Below are positions 5,627-55,871 of a stretch of DNA of 64,000 nt, piece after piece. The notes beneath the pieces were generated by a model. The model ran no database searches, was not told the origin of the DNA, and was given only the letters and a program-made list of their open reading frames with translations. Positions within the stretch are counted from its first letter, which is position 1, and the number at the start of each line of letters is the position of its first letter. Origin of the DNA: Gemmataceae bacterium (lineage in GTDB: Bacteria > Planctomycetota > Planctomycetia > Gemmatales > Gemmataceae); the NCBI GenBank assembly GCA_022616435.1, contig JAKEET010000045.1, positions 18,013 through 82,012 of the forward strand. The letters are read 5' to 3'. Both the position numbers and the translations under genes were made by a program.

Positions 5627-6503
5627 CCCCGTACCACATACTCAGCGCGACGTGTTCGATCATCAACACGAGAAGGGCCCAGGCCGCCGGACCGTGCACG
5701 AGCAGCCAGAGCCGGCCGAGCTGGTGCAAGCGATACTCCAGGTCCATCGAACGCCGCAGCTCGACGAGCCCCCACAGGTCATCGAGGATCGGTTGCTGCT
5801 TGGCGTCGGCATAGCTGCGCGTGCGCTGATACCAGTTTTCCGACAAAGCTTCCGGCTCCGCCTGGGGATGCCACACCCAGCTCCAGAAGGTCAGCGGCCG
5901 CGCCAGGCAACCCTGCACGGCCGCCCCGCAGAAGCCGCGGATCACGTCAGGGCTCTCGGCCAGTTCTTTCTTGCGAACCAGTTCTTCCGCCGCTTGCAGC
6001 ATGAAGACGCGCTGCGGCTCCAGACGCTCCAGGCCGAATTCCCGGGCCACCATGCGCGGCAGGAAGGAGTAGAGCAACTTCTGGCCGTAGAAACCGACGA
6101 CGCCGGAGATCATGACGATCCAGGTCAGCCACACCAGGGCCAGCGTCAGGGGGCTGTTGGCCCGGCCGCGGCTGTGGACGATGACCAACAAGAACGCCAG
6201 GTACGCCGCGGCGATGTGCCAGCGCAGCCAGGCGGTCATCGGTGGGCCCTGTCGATAGCGGAAGCAGCGCCTGAGGATGTGCAGGTACGGGACCAGCATG
6301 GCGACGAACGCCCCGTAGCCGGCGAGCCGCGCCGCCGCGCGCAGCCCAAACGACTCCCATTCCGGCCCCAAGGCCACGAGAATCCAGAGCAGCACGAGCG
6401 CCGCGAAGAGGCCGATCGAGCCCGGCTGCAAGATGTCCCAGGTGAGGGATCGTTTTCCAGTGGTGCGCATGCCAGCATCCAACACGGCGTCATGTCGCCG
6501 CAC
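5619..6503 (-). CDS. polytopic integral membrane protein (≥5 TM helices, conserved His in helices; possibly a b-type cytochrome/quinol-interacting subunit)
   Basis: Hydrophobic helices (IGLFAALVLLWILVALG; YGAFVAMLVPYLHIL; WHIAAAYLAFLLVIVHS; LALVWLTWIVMISGVVGFY; LWLLVHGPAAWALLVLMIEHVAL). It sits between the cNMP/Fe-S gene and the decaheme cytochrome on the same strand. Confidence 0.55.
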   Translation of the reverse strand: MRRHDAVLDAGMRTTGKRSLTWDILQPGSIGLFAALVLLWILVALGPEWESFGLRAAARLAGYGAFVAMLVPYLHILRRCFRYRQGPPMTAWLRWHIAAAYLAFLLVIVHSRGRANSPLTLALVWLTWIVMISGVVGFYGQKLLYSFLPRMVAREFGLERLEPQRVFMLQAAEELVRKKELAESPDVIRGFCGAAVQGCLARPLTFWSWVWHPQAEPEALSENWYQRTRSYADAKQQPILDDLWGLVELRRSMDLEYRLHQLGRLWLLVHGPAAWALLVLMIEHVALSMWYGGF

Positions 6504-6518: not shown

Positions 6519-8747
6519 TTACTGCCGCCCCGCGAAGTTGGCCCAGCTCTTCAACTGCGGGAAATACTCGACCGGATCGACGCGCTGGGCGGCATCGTAC
6601 GGGCAGCAGGCCACGCAGGGCGGATCGTAGTCGTCGGTCAGGCACAGATCGCACTTGTTGGCCACGATCCCCGGCCGCGAGCTGGGCGCGTCCAGGGGCG
6701 ATGTCGGCTGGTACATGTCGATGACGTCGAAGGGGCATTCGCGGGCGCATTGCTGACAGCCGATGCACCGATCGCGATGGATCTGCACCGCCTGGTTTTC
6801 GAGCCAGGTGATGGCGCCCACGGGACAGACCTGCTGGCACGGCGCGTCGAGGCAGTGCAGGCAGGCGCCGGCGACTTCCCAGTGGCCGAACCGCCATTTC
6901 GGATTGGCGCGATGGAAGCGCGGCTGGCCGTCGTGGGCCTCCGCGCAGCCGCGCACGCACTGGTCGCAGCGCGTACACTTGTCCATGTCGATCAAGAGCA
7001 GGTTGCGCGTCAGCATCAGCTTGTCGGCCAGGGCTTGCGGCGGCTCTTGCGGCGGCAGCAGACGGCCGGCGCGCATGTGCTCGTCGCGCACCGACAGGAG
7101 CCGGCGTTCGCGCTGCAGCTTGGCGCCGAGAGCCTGGTACGGTCCGGCGAACAGCGACCGCAGCACGTCGCGATCGAGCCGCAGCAGCGTGGTGCTGCAC
7201 AGCGTCTCCACGGCGGCGGAGCGGACCGGCATCGCGTCGCCTTCCTCCAGGACCGCGGATTCGCCGAAGTACGCGTCGGCCTCCAGGTTGTTCACCATGG
7301 ATTGCCCGCCCGGCAGGTCGAGACTGACCCGGACCATGCCGCTCAGGAGCAGGAACAAGCAATCGGCAGGGTCGCCTTGCTTGAACACGGCCACGCCTTT
7401 CTTGTCGCTCTTCCTGTCCTTCTGTTCCAGGCGGTCGGGTTGCAGAGGCTTGCCGAACTTCTGGTGATACGCCGCCGCGAAGGCTTCCGTGAAGCCGCGA
7501 AATTCCTCGCCGGTCAACGGGAACGGCCGCGGGCTGCTCGCCACGACGCCGGGCCAAGCCGCCTCCAGCAACAAGCGATTGAGCCGGAAGACCTCACAAT
7601 CGTTGAGCGTGTCGCGCCGCTGCAACGCTTGCCGGGACTCGTCGTCGAGCGCCGACGTGGCCCGCTCGTCCGCCGCGGCCAGCAAACGCCTCCGGGTCAG
7701 CGCTCCATTGAGATGTTCGACAATGTGTGTCTTCTCCGCGAAGTCCAGGCGCTCGGCGGGTTCCTTGAGCAGCCACGGCAACGCTTTGACAAGCCGCTTG
7801 CCCAGCCGGGCCGGCCAGCCGGCGCCCGGGTCGCGCAGCGCGGCCAGCAGCCGCGGCCAGTCCAGGACGTCTTCCACGAACACGCGATCGCGAAACAAGC
7901 GGTTCCTGGCCAGCACGCTCGGCAGCGTGCTTCGCACGAACTCCGCCAGCTCGCGCTCGTAAAAGCGCGGGCTCTTCTTGATGATCTCTTCGAGGGCCTT
8001 GCGCTTGATCAGCAGCATCACGCACGGCTTGCCGCCGTCGTCCGGATCGTCGTCCGCGACCAGCGTCGCCGAGCGCGGCTGATTCCAGAGCGTGCCGGTG
8101 ATGCCCATGAAACGATCTTCGAGCGGCTTGATGTTGTTGGCCGCGTCGCGGATGGTGATGGCGGCCCGGGGGGTCGCGGCGGCTTGACCGGCGGCGGCGA
8201 CAAAGGCGCTGCTCGGGTTGGACAGCTCGCGTTCCAGGCGGTGGACCGGCGGCATGCGTCCGTGGAGGGCGCGGGCGACGTGGTTGCGAACGCGCTGGGC
8301 GGCGGCCGCCGGCAACCAATGCTCGGCGGCATCGATCAGCTTCAGCGGAAGGCCGGGGAGCCGGCGGTACAGCGGCGCCAGCCAGCCGAACCAGCCGCGT
8401 CCCGGCGGCGCGTCCTTGGGCCAGGTCGCGGCCTGGCGGAGCACGGCGTTTTCCAGCCGCCGCGCCAGCGGCTTCTCCCAGCAGCCGCGGCCGACCGGCG
8501 CCGCCGGCGGCGCGATGTCGCGGACGCCGACCCGCCCCTGGATGTGCACGGCGGCATAGTCGCTCGTGGTCCCCTTGGCCATGATGACTTCGCCGGCCGT
8601 GTACTGGATCAGGAAGAAGTGGATGCCGCGCTTGGCTTCGCCTTCCTCGTAGAACGACTTGAGAGTGGCGAGCGCCTTGGCGTCGAGACCGGGAATGCCC
8701 TGCAAGTGTTCCTGAATGGTTTGCCAATCCGCCGGGAGTTGTTGCAT
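6519..8747 (-). CDS. fusion protein with two cyclic-nucleotide-binding (cNMP/CAP-type) domains and a C-terminal 4Fe-4S ferredoxin region
   Basis: The N-terminal region (FFLIQYTAGEVIMAKGTTSDYAAVHIQGRVGV) and a second region (VAVFKQGDPADCLFLLLSGMVRVSL...AYFGESAVLE) look like cNMP-binding β-barrels. The C-terminus carries Cys clusters CTRCDQCVRGC, CLHCLDAPCQQVCP, CIGCQQCARECP and CDLCLTDDYDPPCVACCP. The antisense 1149-aa ORF 5568..9017 is rejected. Confidence 0.7.
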   Translation of the reverse strand: MQQLPADWQTIQEHLQGIPGLDAKALATLKSFYEEGEAKRGIHFFLIQYTAGEVIMAKGTTSDYAAVHIQGRVGVRDIAPPAAPVGRGCWEKPLARRLENAVLRQAATWPKDAPPGRGWFGWLAPLYRRLPGLPLKLIDAAEHWLPAAAAQRVRNHVARALHGRMPPVHRLERELSNPSSAFVAAAGQAAATPRAAITIRDAANNIKPLEDRFMGITGTLWNQPRSATLVADDDPDDGGKPCVMLLIKRKALEEIIKKSPRFYERELAEFVRSTLPSVLARNRLFRDRVFVEDVLDWPRLLAALRDPGAGWPARLGKRLVKALPWLLKEPAERLDFAEKTHIVEHLNGALTRRRLLAAADERATSALDDESRQALQRRDTLNDCEVFRLNRLLLEAAWPGVVASSPRPFPLTGEEFRGFTEAFAAAYHQKFGKPLQPDRLEQKDRKSDKKGVAVFKQGDPADCLFLLLSGMVRVSLDLPGGQSMVNNLEADAYFGESAVLEEGDAMPVRSAAVETLCSTTLLRLDRDVLRSLFAGPYQALGAKLQRERRLLSVRDEHMRAGRLLPPQEPPQALADKLMLTRNLLLIDMDKCTRCDQCVRGCAEAHDGQPRFHRANPKWRFGHWEVAGACLHCLDAPCQQVCPVGAITWLENQAVQIHRDRCIGCQQCARECPFDVIDMYQPTSPLDAPSSRPGIVANKCDLCLTDDYDPPCVACCPYDAAQRVDPVEYFPQLKSWANFAGRQ

Positions 8748-49952: not shown

Positions 49953-50891
49953 ATGAAAGCTTTCCGCCGCGCTGTGTTGCTCGCACTTCTGTTCTGCTGG
50001 TTCGCCGGCCCGCTGGCCGCGGGCGACAAGGACAAGGACATCTTCAACTACGTCGCCCAGAAGAAGGCGCCCGAGAGCGTCAAGAAGATCGTGTTCGTCG
50101 CCGACACCAGCCCGCACGGTCCGCGCGGCAACCATGAGTTCATGGCCGGCGCCGTCTACATGGCCCGCACCCTCAACGCCCATTACGACAACGTCTACGC
50201 CACCGTCCATCCGCAGTACCAGTGGCCCAAGGATCTGGCCCATGCCGACGCCATCATCGTGCTGCTCAATCACGGCGGCTCGGCGGTCAACCCGGCGGTG
50301 CGGGCGGCGGTCGAGCGCGGCGCCGGCTTCATGGCGATCCACTACGGCGTCGAGGTCAACAAGGGCAAGCAGGGCGACGCGTTCCTCCAATGGATCGGCG
50401 GTTATTTCGAAACCTACTGGTCGGTCAATCCGTGGTGGACGCCGACGTTCGACAAGATCCCCAAGCACGAGACCACGCGCGGCGTCAAGCCGTTCACGGT
50501 CAACGACGAATGGTACTATCACATGCGCTTCGTCAGCGACATGAAGAACGTGACGCCGATCCTGACCGCCACGCCGCCGCTCAAGACGCTCGGCAACAGC
50601 GACAAGCCGTCGGCCCGCGGCGGCAACCCGGACGTCTTCAAGGCCGTCAAGGACGGCGCGCCGCAGCACATGGCCTGGGCCTACGTCCGCCCCGACGGCA
50701 ACCGCGGCTTCGGCTTCACCGGTTACCACCGCTACGAGAACCTGCAGAACGACAGCTTCCGCACGCTGCTCTTGAACGCCGTGGCGTGGGTCACGAAGCT
50801 CGACGTGCCGGCCGCCGGCGTGCCGTCAAGGACGCCGACCAAGGATGAACTGGAGAAACTCGCGGATGAGGCACTGCGGTGGCGGAAGTAG
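49953..50891 (+). CDS. ThuA-domain protein (type-1 glutamine-amidotransferase-like), signal peptide
   Basis: MKAFRRAVLLALLFCWFAGPLAA signal. ThuA-like blocks (KKIVFVADTSPHG...; DAIIVLLNHGG). Pairing with an upstream Gfo/Idh/MocA gene is common. Confidence 0.65.
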   Translation: MKAFRRAVLLALLFCWFAGPLAAGDKDKDIFNYVAQKKAPESVKKIVFVADTSPHGPRGNHEFMAGAVYMARTLNAHYDNVYATVHPQYQWPKDLAHADAIIVLLNHGGSAVNPAVRAAVERGAGFMAIHYGVEVNKGKQGDAFLQWIGGYFETYWSVNPWWTPTFDKIPKHETTRGVKPFTVNDEWYYHMRFVSDMKNVTPILTATPPLKTLGNSDKPSARGGNPDVFKAVKDGAPQHMAWAYVRPDGNRGFGFTGYHRYENLQNDSFRTLLLNAVAWVTKLDVPAAGVPSRTPTKDELEKLADEALRWRK

Positions 50892-50976
50892 CATTGGGCG
50901 CCATGCCCACGCAAGTCCGTGGGCATGGCGCCCAAGTCCTTCGAACCTGAAAGCCTGACGGTGACACAGCGCTTAG

Positions 50977-52509
50977 GTGGCTTCGCTTATGCCCGCTCCG
51001 GAATCATCCAGGTCGTGGGCTTGGCGTTGTGCCGTGCTCGCTCTTGCTTGTCAATGTCTGACTATCCTTTTCCCCCCGCGCGTCCCGCTGGTCGATTGGC
51101 CCAACCACATGGCCCGGCACGTGCTGGAAGCCGATGGGCTGGCGGGTCGTGAGCTTCCCTCGTTCTACGCGATCGACTATCGCGTGCTGCCGAACCTGGG
51201 GGGCGACCTGGTGATGCCGCTGTTGCTGCTCGTGCTCGAACCGCCGGCGGCAAGCAAGCTCTTTCTGACGCTCGCCGTTCTCGTGTACTGGCTCGGACCG
51301 ACGCTGTACATCTTGCAAGCCAACAACTTCAGACCACACGCGTTGTGGGCGGCGCTGCTCTTGTTGCCATGGAGCTTTTCGAGCCAGTTCTTCTGGGGGT
51401 TCCTGAACTACTATTCCGGACTCGGACTGGCGTTTCTGCTGCTGACCCACGGCGTGCGGATGCATCGTCGTCAATCCGTCCGAGGCTGGGAATGGCTCGT
51501 CCATGCGGCGCTCGTGGCCTTGTTGTTCCTGTGGCATCTGGCGGCCTGGGGCATGTACGGCGTCCTCATGGGCAGCCACGTGATTGCCGATCTTGTCACT
51601 CGGTACCGAGGCGGTTCGACGATGGGCGTCCTCGCCAAGGGCGTCGTTGCGTTTGGCGCCGTGTGTCTGCCGAGCATGGTGCTGGCAGCGATCTACGTTT
51701 CCGAAAAAACCGGCGACGGCGTCGGCGCAACCGACTGGGGCACGGTCGTTCGCAAGCTATACATGCCGCTGACCTTGTTCCGCGGCTACGATTACCGGGC
51801 GGACGGCGTCGCGGCGGCGGCCTGGCTCGCTGCGGCGCTATTCATGTTTGCGGGAAGGCGTCGCGATCCCGGCGAAACGCCGCAAGGCGCAACGCCGCAA
51901 GTCTCGTTCGCGGCGCCATGGATCGGTTTCATCCTGCTCACCGCGTTGTACGTCGCGATTCCGTTTCAGCTTGGCGGAACCAGCGATACCGATTCGCGCT
52001 TGCTGCCCGCCATGCTGGTGTGCGCCCTGGCATGGCTTGGCTCGCAACCGCTCCGTCGCGTCGGCCTGGGATTGACGTTCCTGGCGATCTGCTTCGTCAT
52101 CCGCCAGGGGAGCATCATCCGCGCCTGGCACGAACATTCGCGCCGGCTGGACGTTCATGCCAAGGCTTTCGATCATCTAAAACTGAACAGCCGCGTTCTG
52201 CCCTTGGTGCTCGTGCCGCAGTCGAAGGACTATCCCGAGATTCACTTCCCTTGCTGGGCCGTTGTCGAACACCGGGCGTTCGTGCCCACCCTGTTCGCCT
52301 TTCGCGACCAGCAACCCCTGCGCATCGTTCCGCCGGTCCCGGTTGCGACGACCAGGACGGACGCCGGTTGGCAGTTGGACGAGCCTCTCGTGCGGCAACT
52401 CTACGACTTCGTCTGGATTTACAACCCGGACAACGCTACCGTGCTGGTCCCCGCGTCGTTCGAACTGACGTTCGCGGCCGACGGGCTGGAGCTGTGGCGT
52501 GTGCGCTGA
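50977..52509 (+). CDS. polytopic membrane protein (≥10 TM; possibly a glycosyltransferase-39/ArnT-like fold)
   Basis: Highly hydrophobic translation with many aromatic-rich helices. No family assigned. Confidence 0.5.
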   Translation: MASLMPAPESSRSWAWRCAVLALACQCLTILFPPRVPLVDWPNHMARHVLEADGLAGRELPSFYAIDYRVLPNLGGDLVMPLLLLVLEPPAASKLFLTLAVLVYWLGPTLYILQANNFRPHALWAALLLLPWSFSSQFFWGFLNYYSGLGLAFLLLTHGVRMHRRQSVRGWEWLVHAALVALLFLWHLAAWGMYGVLMGSHVIADLVTRYRGGSTMGVLAKGVVAFGAVCLPSMVLAAIYVSEKTGDGVGATDWGTVVRKLYMPLTLFRGYDYRADGVAAAAWLAAALFMFAGRRRDPGETPQGATPQVSFAAPWIGFILLTALYVAIPFQLGGTSDTDSRLLPAMLVCALAWLGSQPLRRVGLGLTFLAICFVIRQGSIIRAWHEHSRRLDVHAKAFDHLKLNSRVLPLVLVPQSKDYPEIHFPCWAVVEHRAFVPTLFAFRDQQPLRIVPPVPVATTRTDAGWQLDEPLVRQLYDFVWIYNPDNATVLVPASFELTFAADGLELWRVR

Positions 52510-52538
52510 CTCGGCAAGACCGGGGCTGAATCGCCCGG

Positions 52539-52653
52539 CCGCGTTTGCTCCGCTGGACGCACGACCTATGCTTGGTCCAGAGTCGCGGCCCGGCCGCAGG
52601 AATCGCCGGCCTGCCGCTGGCCACGGCGCTTCGGACCAGGAATCGATTTCAAT
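52539..52653. repeat. direct repeat copy 1 (~115 bp, ~80% identical to 53311-53427). Together they flank the DUF4058-like gene
   Basis: Shared blocks GCCGCGTTTGC...ACCTATGCTTGGTCCAG...GGAC[C/A]AGGAATCGATTTCA[A/T]TG are read in both copies. Confidence 0.65.
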
Positions 52654-52727
52654 GCGCGGACGAGGGCCGGCTTCGCTTGCCCTGGCGCAGCGGTTACAAT
52701 GGGGGTGTGCTTTCTGGAGAACTGCGT

Positions 52728-53537
52728 ATGCCTGTCCATGACTGGACGCTGGTCGAAGCCGGCATTGATCATGCTTTTCACACCGCTTGGGTCACCGAGA
52801 TTCAGAAGGCCCTGAACGACGGTGTGCTGCCTGCCGGCTTCTATGCGTTGGCCGAACAACATTTCGGTCGACCGATTGCCGATGTGTCGACCCTGCATAC
52901 CAGCGATCCGGGTCAAGAGCCAGCGCCATTTCCTTCGGAGCGGGGAGGCATCGCTGTTGCCGACGCGCCGCCCAAAGCGCGCCTCAAGCAGTCGGTGGAC
53001 CGGCCGGCGGCGCTGACACATCGGCGCAGCCTCGCGATTCGTCATGTGAGCGGCCATCGCTTGGTCGCGCTCTTGGAAATCGTTTCGCCGGCCAACAAGG
53101 ATCGCGGCAGCAGTGTCGAGGCATTCTTGGAGAAAATCATGTCGGCATTGGACGTTGGCGTACACGTGACGTTGGCGGACCTGATTCCCCCAGGTCCGCA
53201 CGATCCGAAAGGACTGCACGGCGCCATGCTGGAGCGACTTGAACCGGCCCAGGATACGTTCGAGCTTCTCCCCGACGAACCGCTCACTCTGGCCACGTCC
53301 GCCGCGTTTGCACCTGTCAGCGCCACAACCTATGCTTGGTCCAGGATCGCCGCCCGATCGAAGATCGCCGGCTCTTCCTGCTGGCGGCGTATTGGCGCCG
53401 CCCGTCGGACAAGGAATCGATTTCATGAATCCTTTGGACGTGTCGGTGATCGTGCCGACCTATCGCGAAGCGGAAAACCTGCCGGTGCTGGTCCCTCGGA
53501 TCGCGACTGCTTTGCAGGAAGCGCAGCTCACGTTTGA
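52728..53537 (+). CDS. DUF4058-like protein. The 3' ~75 codons read into repeat copy 2 and overlap the GT start, so the C-terminus is probably not native
   Basis: MPVHDWTLVEAGIDHAFHTAWVTEIQKALNDGVLPAGFYALAEQHF resembles the DUF4058 N-terminal block (W..FH..LI...L...LP..YYA..E). The ATG 52728 follows TACAAT-like sequence. Confidence 0.4.
   Translation: MPVHDWTLVEAGIDHAFHTAWVTEIQKALNDGVLPAGFYALAEQHFGRPIADVSTLHTSDPGQEPAPFPSERGGIAVADAPPKARLKQSVDRPAALTHRRSLAIRHVSGHRLVALLEIVSPANKDRGSSVEAFLEKIMSALDVGVHVTLADLIPPGPHDPKGLHGAMLERLEPAQDTFELLPDEPLTLATSAAFAPVSATTYAWSRIAARSKIAGSSCWRRIGAARRTRNRFHESFGRVGDRADLSRSGKPAGAGPSDRDCFAGSAAHV
53311..53427. repeat. direct repeat copy 2. It also forms the 5' leader and start codon of the GT2 gene
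   Basis: See copy 1. The copy ends at ...GGACAAGGAATCGATTTCATG, which is the GT start. Confidence 0.65.
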
Positions 53538-54555
53538 GATCGTCATCGTCGATGACAACAGTCCGGACGCGACGCCGCGAGTCTGCGCGGACTTGGCGGC
53601 GCGGTTCCCGGTCCGGCTCGAGACGCGCACGACCGAGCGCGGCCTGTCGAGCGCCGTCATGCACGGCATGAACGTGGCCCGCGGCGATGTCCTGGTGTGC
53701 ATGGACGCCGACCTGTCGCACCCGCCGGAGAAAGTGCCGGAGCTGGTCAGGACCTTGAATGAGGGCGCCGACTTCGTCCTCGGCAGCCGCTACGTCAAGG
53801 GCGGCGCCACCGCCGAGGGCTGGGGCTTGTTTCGCTGGCTGAATTCCAAGGTCGCCACGCTCATGGCCTGGCCGCTCACGGCGACCTCCGATCCCATGGC
53901 CGGCTTCTTCGCCATCGGCCGCGATACGTTTGAGGCGGCCCGGAACCTCGATCCGATCGGCTACAAGATTGCCCTGGAATTGCTCGTCAAATGCCGCTGC
54001 CGGGACGTGCGCGAAGTGCCCATCCATTTCGAGAACCGCCTGCACGGCGCCAGCAAGCTGTCGTTCCAGGAACAAGTCAACTACCTGCGGCACCTGAAGC
54101 GGCTCTACGAGTTCAAGTTCGGCGCCCTGGCCAGGCTAGCCCAGTTCTTGCTCATCGGCGGCACCGGCATGGTCGTCGATCTCGCTTTCTACGTGCTGTT
54201 GCTGGGCTGGCTGCCTCTGGGCCTCGCCCGCGCCGCGGCGATCTGGGTGGCAATGACCTGGAATTACTGGCTCAATCGCCGCATCACGTTCTCGTTCGCG
54301 CGCCGCCGGGCGGTCTTGCCGCAGTATGCCATGTTCTGCCTGTCGTGCGGCCTCGGCGCGGCGGTGAACTGGTCGGTGTCGCTCGCGCTGTCCAGCCTGC
54401 TGACGGTGTTCGGCGGCCGGCCGCTCCTGGCCGCGGTCGTCGGCATCATCGCGGGAAGCTTGTTCAACTTCATCTTGTGCAACACCGCGGTGTTCCATCG
54501 CACCAAGCCGGCGCCGGAGTCGGTTGGCGAACCCGTGCTGGTTGACAATCCCTGA
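53425..54555 (+). CDS. family 2 glycosyltransferase (polyprenol-phosphate sugar transferase, DPM1/GtrB-like) fused to a GtrA-like C-terminal membrane domain
   Basis: SVIVPTYREAENL and VIVDDNSPD...DADLSHPPE motifs. The C-terminus has 4 TM helices (GtrA-like). Confidence 0.85.
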   Translation: MNPLDVSVIVPTYREAENLPVLVPRIATALQEAQLTFEIVIVDDNSPDATPRVCADLAARFPVRLETRTTERGLSSAVMHGMNVARGDVLVCMDADLSHPPEKVPELVRTLNEGADFVLGSRYVKGGATAEGWGLFRWLNSKVATLMAWPLTATSDPMAGFFAIGRDTFEAARNLDPIGYKIALELLVKCRCRDVREVPIHFENRLHGASKLSFQEQVNYLRHLKRLYEFKFGALARLAQFLLIGGTGMVVDLAFYVLLLGWLPLGLARAAAIWVAMTWNYWLNRRITFSFARRRAVLPQYAMFCLSCGLGAAVNWSVSLALSSLLTVFGGRPLLAAVVGIIAGSLFNFILCNTAVFHRTKPAPESVGEPVLVDNP

Positions 54556-54560
54556 GTTTC

Positions 54561-55769
54561 TCACGGTCCCCTGGGTTCTCGCACGCCTGCCAGCAGCACG
54601 ACGGCCACCAGCGCCAGCCCCGCGCCGCAGCCGAACGCCGCCCAGACTCCGAAATACTGGTACAGCGCGCCGAACAGCAAGCTCGACGGCAGCGTGGCGA
54701 TGCCGATGGCGCAGTGGAACCAGCCGAAGGCCAGTCCTTTGCGCTCGCTGCCGGCGAGGTTGACAACCAGCGTCTTCTCCGCCGGCTCCGTCAGCCCGTA
54801 GAACAGGGCGTACGCCAGGAAGCAGGCCCACGCTTCCCACGCCGCCGTCGCCCAGGCAAACGCCACGTAAATGCCGGCATACATGCACCAGCCGAGCATG
54901 AGGAACGGCCGCGGACCGAGCGCGTCCACGGCGCGGCCCAGGATCAGGTTGCTCGAGCTCTTGACGATGTGGAAGACGCACCACAAGACCGGCAGCAGCA
55001 CGGCCGGCACCCCCAGCTCCCCGGCCCGCACGAGCAGAAACGTGTCGCTCGAATTCCCCAGGGTGAACACGACCAGGGCCAGCAGATACAATCGGAAGTT
55101 CCGATCGAACGGTTGCAGCGACAATCGGACCCGTTCCTTGGTCGGCTCGGTGGGCAGCGGCTCGGTCGCCGCCGTCTCGCGCAGCCCGAACATCAATAAC
55201 CCAAGAACGAGCAAGCCCGGCACGAGCGTCAGCAGGAACAGCGTGCGCAGCGAGTCCGGCCACAGCCAGAGAAACCCGAACGCCAGCAGCGGACCGATGG
55301 CCGCGCCGAGATGATCCATCGCGCGATGGAAGCCGAACGCCCGGCCGCGGCTCGCCGGCTCGGTGGCGTCGGCGATCAAGGCGTCGCGCGGCGCCGTGCG
55401 CACGCCCTTGCCGATGCGATCGCTGATGCGGATGACGAATAGCTGCCAGGGCGCCACGATCACGCCGATCACGGGACGTGTCAGCACAGCGAGCGAATAG
55501 CCGAACAGCACGAAGCCTTTGCGGCGGCCGGCCTGGTCGGATCGCCCGCCCGACCAGAGCTTCAGGAAGCTGGCGACGGAATCGGCGGCCCCTTCGATGA
55601 CGCCGAGGTGAAACTTGTTGCCCGCAAGGACCGTCAGCAAGAACCCCGGCAGCAGCGGATAGATCATCTCGCTGGCGATGTCGTTGACGAGGCTGACGCC
55701 GCCGAGGACCTTGACGTTGCGCGGCAGCGGCGGAGCGGGACCGGCGGCGGCAGTGGCAGGTGGATTCAT
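54561..55769 (-). CDS. MFS transporter
   Basis: 12-TM hydrophobic profile with MFS-like loop motifs (GRAVDALGPRP, DRIGKGVRTAPRDALIAD). Confidence 0.75.
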   Translation of the reverse strand: MNPPATAAAGPAPPLPRNVKVLGGVSLVNDIASEMIYPLLPGFLLTVLAGNKFHLGVIEGAADSVASFLKLWSGGRSDQAGRRKGFVLFGYSLAVLTRPVIGVIVAPWQLFVIRISDRIGKGVRTAPRDALIADATEPASRGRAFGFHRAMDHLGAAIGPLLAFGFLWLWPDSLRTLFLLTLVPGLLVLGLLMFGLRETAATEPLPTEPTKERVRLSLQPFDRNFRLYLLALVVFTLGNSSDTFLLVRAGELGVPAVLLPVLWCVFHIVKSSSNLILGRAVDALGPRPFLMLGWCMYAGIYVAFAWATAAWEAWACFLAYALFYGLTEPAEKTLVVNLAGSERKGLAFGWFHCAIGIATLPSSLLFGALYQYFGVWAAFGCGAGLALVAVVLLAGVREPRGP

Positions 55770-55780
55770 CGAGGAACGAG

Positions 55781-55871
55781 CGGAGAGGGCGGGATTCGAA
55801 CCCGCGGTAAGGATTTGACTCCCTACACCGGTTTAGCAAACCGGCGCTATCGGCCACTCAGCCACCTCTCC
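55781..55871 (-). tRNA. tRNA-Ser (anticodon GCT), class II with long variable arm
   Basis: Reverse complement GGAGAGGTGGCTGAGTGGCCGATAGCGCCGGTTTGCTAAACCGG-TGTAGGGAGTCAAATCCTTACCGC-GGGTTCGAATCCCGCCCTCTCCG. Anticodon loop TTGCTAA. Confidence 0.85.

Follow-up and report, generated by a model that had tools for sequence, protein, structure and literature searches.

Locus and repeat pair

We analyzed a 64-kb stretch of high-GC DNA (the window), the proteins of which are identical to 'MAG: Gemmataceae bacterium' entries on a 224-kb contig. This report concerns its segment 50977–54555, where a fragment of a DUF4058 gene lies between two direct copies of the leader of a glycosyltransferase gene. All features are on the plus strand. 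A membrane-protein gene is followed, after a gap of 915 nt, by a gene for a family 2 glycosyltransferase fused to a GtrA-like membrane domain (GT2-GtrA, in the following GT2), and the DUF4058 fragment and its flanking repeats occupy the gap.

The two repeats have the same orientation and extend from 52538 to 52654 (117 nt, copy 1) and from 53301 to 53427 (127 nt, copy 2), including an ATG triplet in each (52652–52654 and 53425–53427). A repeat search detected three collinear blocks of 14 nt (93% identity), 40 nt (83%) and 26 nt (88%), which a gapped local alignment merged into one match of 52538–52651 with 53301–53425. Over their whole length the copies are 74% identical (96/130) with six gap openings, compared with 83–93% in the blocks. 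The blastn E-value of the pair is 1e-15 (search space 430 × 700 nt), and the two most conserved cores occur exactly twice each in the window at chance expectations of 0.07 and 0.00. An earlier reading of the window made from its letters (the sequence-only reading) had placed such a pair at 52539–52653 and 53311–53427 with an identity of ~80%. By the three blocks, the E-value and the copy number of the cores this pair is real, but copy 2 starts at 53301 rather than at 53311, and the proposed identity applies inside the ungapped blocks (~80–90%) and not to the full length. Copy 1 is intergenic, as had been described, and begins 29 nt past the stop codon of the membrane-protein gene (52507–52509). 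Copy 2 indeed terminates in the start codon of GT2; what had been overlooked is that copy 1 includes an ATG as well.

L169 and L170, two independent Logan assemblies that come from separate sequencing runs, are 100% identical to the window over 6.5–6.9 kb spanning the whole structure. An assembly artefact is therefore ruled out. Both Logan contigs stop at window position 55807, inside a tRNA-Ser(GCT) gene on the minus strand (55780–55871).

In copy 1 we find a -35-like TTTGCT (52544–52549), a -10-like TATGCT (52567–52572), a Shine-Dalgarno-like AGGA and the duplicate of the GT2 start codon. The corresponding elements of copy 2 are TTTGCA (53307–53312), TATGCT (53331–53336), AAGGA and the GT2 start codon itself; this copy is the working leader of GT2. 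The 649 nt between the copies (52652–53300) comprise only an upstream region of ~75 nt and the DUF4058 gene fragment. The upstream region (52655–52727) contains a -10 box TACAAT (52695–52700) and a Shine-Dalgarno-like GGAG. The insert has the same GC content as its flanks, and there is therefore no compositional sign of recent foreign origin. A short open reading frame of 29 codons (52652–52741), read from the sequence, runs from the duplicated GT2 start codon to 11 nt past the DUF4058 ATG at 52728 and is probably a by-product of the insertion. Its stop codon overlaps the DUF4058 start region, so that translational coupling would be conceivable.

The membrane-protein gene (50977–52509) encodes a multi-pass protein of 510 residues if it starts at a GTG codon; gene callers place the start at 51109 (466 residues), and the gene as called is also seen in both Logan assemblies. 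The protein has no Pfam or NCBIfam match and no family assignment. The GT2 gene (53425–54555) matches Pfam PF00535 (112 bits) and PF04138 (71 bits). Among the NCBIfam models it comes closest to ArnC-like and dolichyl-phosphate hexose transferases without reaching any of their cut-offs, and the product is of the polyprenyl-phosphate sugar transferase type.

The DUF4058 gene fragment

The open reading frame starting at 52728 scores 31.1 bits with Pfam PF13267 (DUF4058), for which the cut-off is 25 (E = 1.9e-7), in agreement with the family named in the sequence-only reading. It passes through copy 2, as that reading had also stated, and reaches its stop codon at 53535–53537, giving a product of 269 residues. 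A search with this product returned 1867 homologues. The best is 66% identical and the closest ones have 247–259 residues, covering only 72% of the 269-residue query.

Homology is lost after 'LTLATSA' (residue ~192, nt ~53303), exactly at the left edge of copy 2. The relatives go on for a conserved stretch of ~55–60 residues (…PLFLRPDRYVNVPLEPTYQAAY.GMPAFWRDVLE), while the window frame continues with unrelated residues. Fifty-four relatives retain this part, including the invariant residues F215, Y230, G236, P238 and W241. In a tblastn search with the full-length protein P0012 the match in the window ends at residue 192 (nt 53306). We also inspected 80 further metagenome DUF4058 loci, in which every copy that is not cut by a contig end reaches residue ~243–253 (L098 via a frameshift); the internal stop of homology at residue 192 is found in the window copy only. 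The DUF4058-derived part of the frame (52728–53303) thus corresponds to residues 1–192 of a family of ~250 residues. The remaining 77 codons (53304–53537) are made up of leader copy 2 and of the first 112 nt of GT2, read in a different frame. This tail has no homologues and is covered by the identical protein P0001 only.

From these alignments we judge the truncation at the edge of copy 2 to be real. The sequence-only reading had described a DUF4058 likeness limited to the N-terminal half. This partial likeness is in part a property of the Pfam profile, and it is the subfamily alignment that bears out the truncation. Even in full-length P0012 the match to PF13267 covers only profile positions 16–164 of 254 (subfamily residues ~12–160), so that in this family the extent of the domain match by itself is no basis for calling a truncation. 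The annotated 269-residue 'DUF4058 family protein' should accordingly be flagged as a truncated fusion frame.

At the junction, the pentamer GCCGC is present in the DUF4058 consensus (…TAC GCC GCC GG…) as well as in the leader (…CCGGCCGCGTTTGC). This microhomology suggests an illegitimate join. The 576-nt DUF4058 coding part has no frameshift, and in the retained 192 residues 7 of 91 highly conserved positions are changed, a number inside the family range (mean 3.8, maximum 11). A TANAAT motif at -60 to -25 (mode -38) was detected in 42 of 65 DUF4058 loci and in 0 of 65 in a control window, and a Shine-Dalgarno-like motif in 58 of the 65. The window cassette carries both the family-typical -10 box (TACAAT) and a Shine-Dalgarno motif.

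To describe the fold we used an AlphaFold2 model of full-length P0012 built with 54 homologues (pLDDT 83.6, pTM 0.85). In this model DUF4058 has a PD-(D/E)XK restriction-endonuclease fold, the core of which can be superimposed on solved members of that class. The nearest predicted fold is that of the Uma2/DUF820/TT1808 predicted endonucleases (PF05685; PDB entries 1wdj and 3ot2). There is no sequence-level match between the two groups, and Pfam keeps DUF4058 as a separate family. DUF4058 further differs from Uma2/DUF820 by an extra C-terminal subdomain of ~60 residues, and it is this subdomain that the window copy has lost. The missing region (residues ~193–250) consists of four strands and two helices in the P0012 model with pLDDT values above 90. 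A whole folded subdomain is therefore predicted to be gone from the window copy, which keeps the restriction-endonuclease-like core. The alignment has conserved acidic and basic residues (E116, K123, D124 and D150), which would be candidates for a putative metal-dependent nuclease activity.

Other sources add little to this picture. None of the PADLOC defence-system models and no NCBIfam model matches DUF4058, a PDB profile search gave no sequence-level relative, and our literature search found no paper mentioning the family. Nor did we find DUF4058 in viral contigs or plasmids, and there is therefore no sign of phage or plasmid carriage.

Leaders and flanking repeats at related loci

A search with the GT2 protein yielded relatives of 77–86% identity on short metagenome contigs. 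In two of these, L081 and L088, an orthologue of the membrane-protein gene (74% and 71% amino-acid identity) precedes GT2 (86% and 84%) at a distance of 124 and 98 nt, respectively. Neither has a DUF4058 gene between the two genes, and each has a single leader. Judged by their sequences, these loci are empty sites. The sequence-only reading had proposed a comparison with orthologous loci lacking the cassette, and both loci support its suggestion that an insertion or duplication event, possibly of a small mobile cassette, duplicated the region upstream of the target gene. Three further contigs (L082, L084 and L087) have different upstream neighbours and again one leader only; L083 is uninformative, because the contig begins 44 nt before GT2. 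A GT2 search of species-representative genomes returned 80 loci with a best identity of 63%. None of these has the membrane-protein gene or a DUF4058 gene, and therefore no orthologous locus comes from this source. Metagenome and Logan contigs supplied the usable relatives of the locus.

In L081 and L088 the single leader consists of TTTGC, the invariant ACCTATGCTTGG 16–17 nt further on, a variable stretch and finally GAAGGAATCGA-N5-ATG. The core CACGACCTATGCTTGGTCCAG of copy 1 is identical in both of these leaders. Between the two window copies identity is 74%, compared with 62–70% to the five orthologous leaders, and both are equally far from the L081 leader (66–67%). In addition, a middle segment common to both window copies is missing from all five. 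Since the window copies are closer to each other than to any orthologous leader, the duplication arose in the lineage of the window itself, and the small margin places it long ago. As far as leader sequences can tell, the duplication is thus old and lineage-specific. The insertion event put forward in the sequence-only reading stands, but the strong divergence of the repeats makes it old rather than recent.

The same data bear on a reversed order of events, in which the cassette and both leaders would be ancestral and L081 and L088 would have lost the cassette by recombination between the copies, mimicking an empty site. Recombination between direct repeats does delete precisely, and the repeats are old, with a divergence near that between the window and the L081 leaders. 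This scenario would, however, require that two or more lineages lost the cassette precisely and independently of each other, L082, L084 and L087 being single-leader loci as well, and it is at odds with the lineage-specific segments that are common to the window copies and occur in none of the five orthologous leaders. We consider it highly improbable.

The conserved core of the leader can be interpreted as a promoter (-35-like TTTGCY, -10-like TATGCT) together with a ribosome-binding site. Copy 1 retains this promoter-like core, the ribosome-binding site and the ATG. An Rfam scan of 50500–55500 gave no match with E-values up to 1, and both copies as well as two of the orthologous leaders, when folded as RNA, did not surpass shuffled sequences (z from -0.7 to +0.6; -0.74 and -0.48 for the window copies). 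With no Rfam match and no significant fold in these four leaders, a structured cis-regulatory RNA was discarded. A scan for terminator-like sites between copy 1 and GT2 found none. In a wider sense the repeat might still act as a cis-regulatory element, be it an operator, a structured leader RNA or a dispersed repeat, and stand before two genes independently, without any insertion, and the blocks conserved between the copies are indeed those conserved among the orthologous leaders (TTTGC, ACCTATGCTTGG and GGAATCGAT). Against this stand the missing Rfam match and fold, the restriction to two copies in 64 kb and the finding that 0 of 64 other DUF4058 upstream regions carry the repeat. Moreover, the 3' end of the DUF4058 gene has given way to copy 2, and non-conserved stretches are common to both copies, too. 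We give this explanation almost no weight.

About 40 nt of the 3' end of the membrane-protein gene (GACTTCGT.TGGATT..C.A..CGGA.AACGCTA.CGT; window 52395–52440) are found directly 5' of the GT2 leader even in relatives without this gene (L082 1085–1125; L084 ~975–1015; L087 ~1215–1255). This stretch is either a remnant of an ancestral gene pair or has a regulatory role for GT2.

We then looked for flanking direct repeats at the 58 DUF4058 loci, including the window, that had sufficient DNA on both sides, by comparing the 400 nt upstream of each gene with the 3' end of the gene plus 450 nt downstream. The control consisted of 1476 positions chosen at random in 1.24 Mb of DNA, most of it planctomycete. 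Repeats scoring 65 bits or more were present at 4 of the 58 loci (the window, L089, L126 and L136) compared with 10 of the 1476 control positions (0.7%). The Fisher p-value is 0.0014, and 0.011 without the window. A scan of whole control loci showed that such repeats are mostly internal to large proteins or are paralogues. In this test the window repeat has 127 aligned columns at 73% identity. The repeat of L089 is gapped and spans ~150–190 nt (~76%), that of L126 has 81 nt (84%) and that of L136 80 nt (96%). A shorter repeat of 33 nt (85%) flanks the gene in L103.

The sequence-only reading had proposed to search for other DUF4058 copies with the same flanking repeat. Long flanking repeats do exist at other loci, but their sequences are unrelated, and the repeats are therefore derived from the target and not part of an element. 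In L089 and L103 the repeat covers the 3' end of the upstream gene with its stop codon (the last 105 and 33 nt, respectively), and in L126 it lies directly past the stop codon of the upstream gene. In the window and in L136 it is a leader whose last letter is the A of the start codon downstream. The repeats are 850–926 nt apart in the full-length cases with long repeats (L089, L126 and L136). These inserts comprise ~100–130 nt of upstream DNA, the gene and then 65 nt or less, with a -10 box in L089 and L126. The genes of L103 (2231–3018) and L104 (819–1605) are 92.6% identical, but all similarity between the two loci ceases 14 nt ahead of the ATG and 18 nt past the stop codon. This is thus the same gene in unrelated contexts, with no fixed element ends. 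L103 and L104 are from sister samples, and L103 is without the usual TACAAT box.

DUF4058 genes can also be stably embedded: P0067 was found on 22 contigs in one identical context with no flanking repeat. Paired DUF4058 genes, with 47–57% identity to the query, occur in L096 (392–1150 on the plus strand and 1220–1954 on the minus strand, convergent) and in L149 (712–1449 and 1474–2229, in tandem). In the control locus L063 a 96-nt direct repeat (80% identity; 5880–5974 and 7513–7608) surrounds a single gene with an open frame of 417 residues. By eye, its two HxK…D motifs resemble those of phospholipase D/Nuc proteins, and the locus may be another case of a nuclease-type gene with a long flanking duplication.

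Proposed history and comparison with known systems

Insertion with long target duplication has reportedly been described for restriction-modification genes by Nobusato et al. in 2000. For type I–IV restriction-modification genes it was defined, with a target duplication of more than 30 bp and no other mobile element, by Furuta, Abe & Kobayashi in 2010 (PMC2853133), who credit an earlier Helicobacter comparison with the discovery and state that parts of their proposed life cycle are still without experimental evidence. The published duplications range from 46 to over 400 bp and their copies are 90% or more identical (PMC2853133). Furuta et al. identified such cases by an insert that is absent from the aligned orthologous site, by repeats that both align with a single-copy target, by a duplication of more than 30 bp, by the lack of any other mobility gene or element behind the insertion, by a repeat that is not multicopy in the genome and by restriction and modification genes in the insert. 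In the window, the insert is absent from L081 and L088, both repeats align with the single leaders of L081, L088, L082, L087 and L084, and the duplication measures 117 and 127 nt. As to other mobility signals, the insert ends have no inverted repeats, there is no tRNA at the site, the six neighbouring genes examined showed no transposase or integrase domain, and the repeat occurs twice in the 64 kb searched. The insert contains a DUF4058 fragment only and no pair of restriction and modification genes.

The locus shares further features with the published cases. A gene with a restriction-endonuclease fold lies in a short insert between direct copies, much longer than 30 bp, of a sequence that a related genome has only once at this site. 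The flanking genes are intact, and the length of the repeat varies (33 to ~190 nt over the DUF4058 loci). Unlike those cases, it has a solitary gene of the Uma2-like PD-(D/E)XK type without a methyltransferase, its planctomycete host belongs to a phylum not among them, its repeats are old (74%) and its gene is truncated at the repeat junction. The locus thus behaves as the published cases do, without being a restriction-modification unit.

Classical transposable elements and cassettes were considered as well. Insertion sequences and transposons likewise produce inserts flanked by target duplications, typically of 2–14 bp. Here the duplication is 117–127 nt long, its length differs between loci and the ends of the element are not fixed. 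None of the six neighbouring genes that were tested encodes a transposase or integrase domain, the ends of the insert show no inverted repeats and there is no short duplication of fixed length, so that a classical element was rejected. Site-specific integration at a tRNA gene was also rejected, there being no tRNA at the insertion site. Integron cassettes and attC arrays resemble the DUF4058 loci, L126 and L136 in particular, in being single-gene units of ~0.9 kb between repeats of ~80–140 nt. In contrast to attC sites, the window repeat is a resident leader that is present at the empty sites, and the cassettes have their own promoter. The copies form no significant hairpin and the tested neighbours encode no integrase domain, on which grounds an integron cassette was rejected.

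Based on these comparisons we propose, with a probability of roughly 70%, that the locus arose by insertion with long target duplication, as known for restriction-modification genes, here with a solitary nuclease-like gene. The ancestral state, which the comparison with L081 and L088 brings out, would be the membrane-protein gene, one leader of ~100–125 nt and the GT2-GtrA gene. A DUF4058 cassette consisting of ~75 nt of its own upstream region with the TACAAT box and the gene would have entered this leader, leaving at least 117 nt of it, GT2 start codon included, on both sides of the insert. A later, microhomology-mediated deletion could then have removed the last ~55–60 DUF4058 codons together with the left part of copy 2; alternatively, the fragment may have been truncated already when it was inserted. 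The repeats, the empty sites, the truncation point, the fold and the excess of flanking repeats at other DUF4058 loci are what the data show, whereas the order of events, their division into two steps and a possible part of the nuclease are inferred. A complete leader was left before GT2, and the insertion therefore did not cut the gene from its control region. The duplication would thus have made an insertion inside this region tolerable.

Several observations weigh against this proposal. A consensus promoter scan detected no sigma-70-like site in the leader, so that the promoter assignment is one by conservation. No donor copy of the insert was found, the best relative being 66% identical, the ends of the insert are undefined, no mechanistic feature ties the event to the DUF4058 protein, and the insert has no methyltransferase, unlike the published cases. 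The empty-site comparison is confined to the window; for L089 a protein search with the C-terminus of the kinase gene gave no close orthologue. The control of the recurrence test consisted of random positions and not of matched accessory genes. In L126 and L136, moreover, the repeat is present in three local copies with differing content between them. L126 has a cassette-array-like order of repeat (280–425), DUF4058, repeat (1249–1329), two small genes and repeat (2127–2270). L136 shows repeat (1–83), DUF4058, repeat (934–1017), a truncated gene, repeat (1317–1395) and the same gene start again, and its repeat holds a perfect hairpin stem of 18 bp. Both loci may therefore represent local repeat families or tandem duplications instead of simple target duplications. 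The clean cases then are the window and L089, with long repeats, and L103, with a short one. As to details of the two loci, copies 1 and 3 of L126 contain ~55 extra nt with an inverted repeat of 10-nt arms (AACGCAGATT…AATCTGCGTT) that is not in copy 2. The repeat and the gene start of L136 form a tandem duplication of ~384 nt, and its truncated frame looks, by eye, like the N-terminus of an IS200/RAYT-type transposase, with no Pfam match.

A last point of this kind is that the repeats are 26% diverged with six gaps, while the coding part between them is free of frameshifts. This contrast fits a gene that was functional for long and truncated late, but also fits repeats that differed already at integration. 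Copies that started out identical would imply that selection acted on the gene during most of the time that followed; the loss of its 3' end, and of whatever sequence preceded the present copy 2, would then be a later, microhomology-mediated deletion. The second possibility corresponds to a Campbell-type integration, in which a circle with one leader and the cassette, excised in a related strain when its flanking repeats recombined, would have been taken up and have integrated into the resident leader by homologous recombination, so that the copies were already different on the day of integration. With a circle from a diverged relative the copies would never have been identical, and the event may be younger. 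Under equal neutral decay the repeats are far more diverged than the coding part suggests, which this route would account for, and Furuta et al. propose such a cycle for restriction-modification units, which would invade, amplify and be released (PMC2853133). A first de novo duplication would be needed anyway, however, the two copies are equally distant from the orthologous leaders (66–67% to L081) as expected for duplication in place, and no closer cassette-bearing relative was found. We regard this route as improbable.

The junction raises the further alternative of a one-step replication error, that is, template switching by microhomology-mediated break-induced replication (MMBIR) or fork stalling and template switching (FoSTeS). 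A fork would leave the leader, copy ~650 nt of DUF4058 sequence elsewhere and return to the beginning of the leader via GCCGC, resulting in a tandem leader duplication around a templated, already truncated insert, with no part played by the DUF4058 protein. The microhomology at the right junction, the arbitrary ends of the insert with no inverted repeats and the incomplete gene are all compatible with such an error. It would leave unexplained why the same architecture is ~10 times commoner at DUF4058 loci of unrelated organisms than at control positions and why the other inserts comprise a whole gene and its promoter, and again no donor copy is known. We therefore judge a replication error to be unlikely, and insertion with long target duplication remains our preferred explanation.

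Going one step further, DUF4058 genes might be self-propagating single-gene elements of Planctomycetota. The Uma2-like PD-(D/E)XK nuclease would then make widely staggered breaks or provoke repair synthesis, by which the gene with its own promoter would be pasted in with a target duplication of 80–190 nt while the neighbouring genes stay intact. We put this forward tentatively and find it, on balance, doubtful. That a family of solitary nuclease-like genes travels by long target duplication is a moderately supported hint. If self-propagation were true, long target duplication would no longer be limited to restriction-modification units but would include a solitary nuclease gene, and its mechanism could be worked out in a compact system.

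On the preferred reading, the locus is a further case of a known, little-studied type of rearrangement, and the duplication explains how a foreign gene could settle in a control region without severing GT2 from its promoter-like leader. Long target duplication has so far been described from genome comparisons, mostly for restriction-modification genes. The same footprint for solitary nuclease-like genes of ~250 residues in an unrelated phylum would suggest that it is the restriction-type nuclease, and not the methyltransferase, that matters when genes move in this way, and it would provide a testable function for a large family of unknown function (1867 matches).

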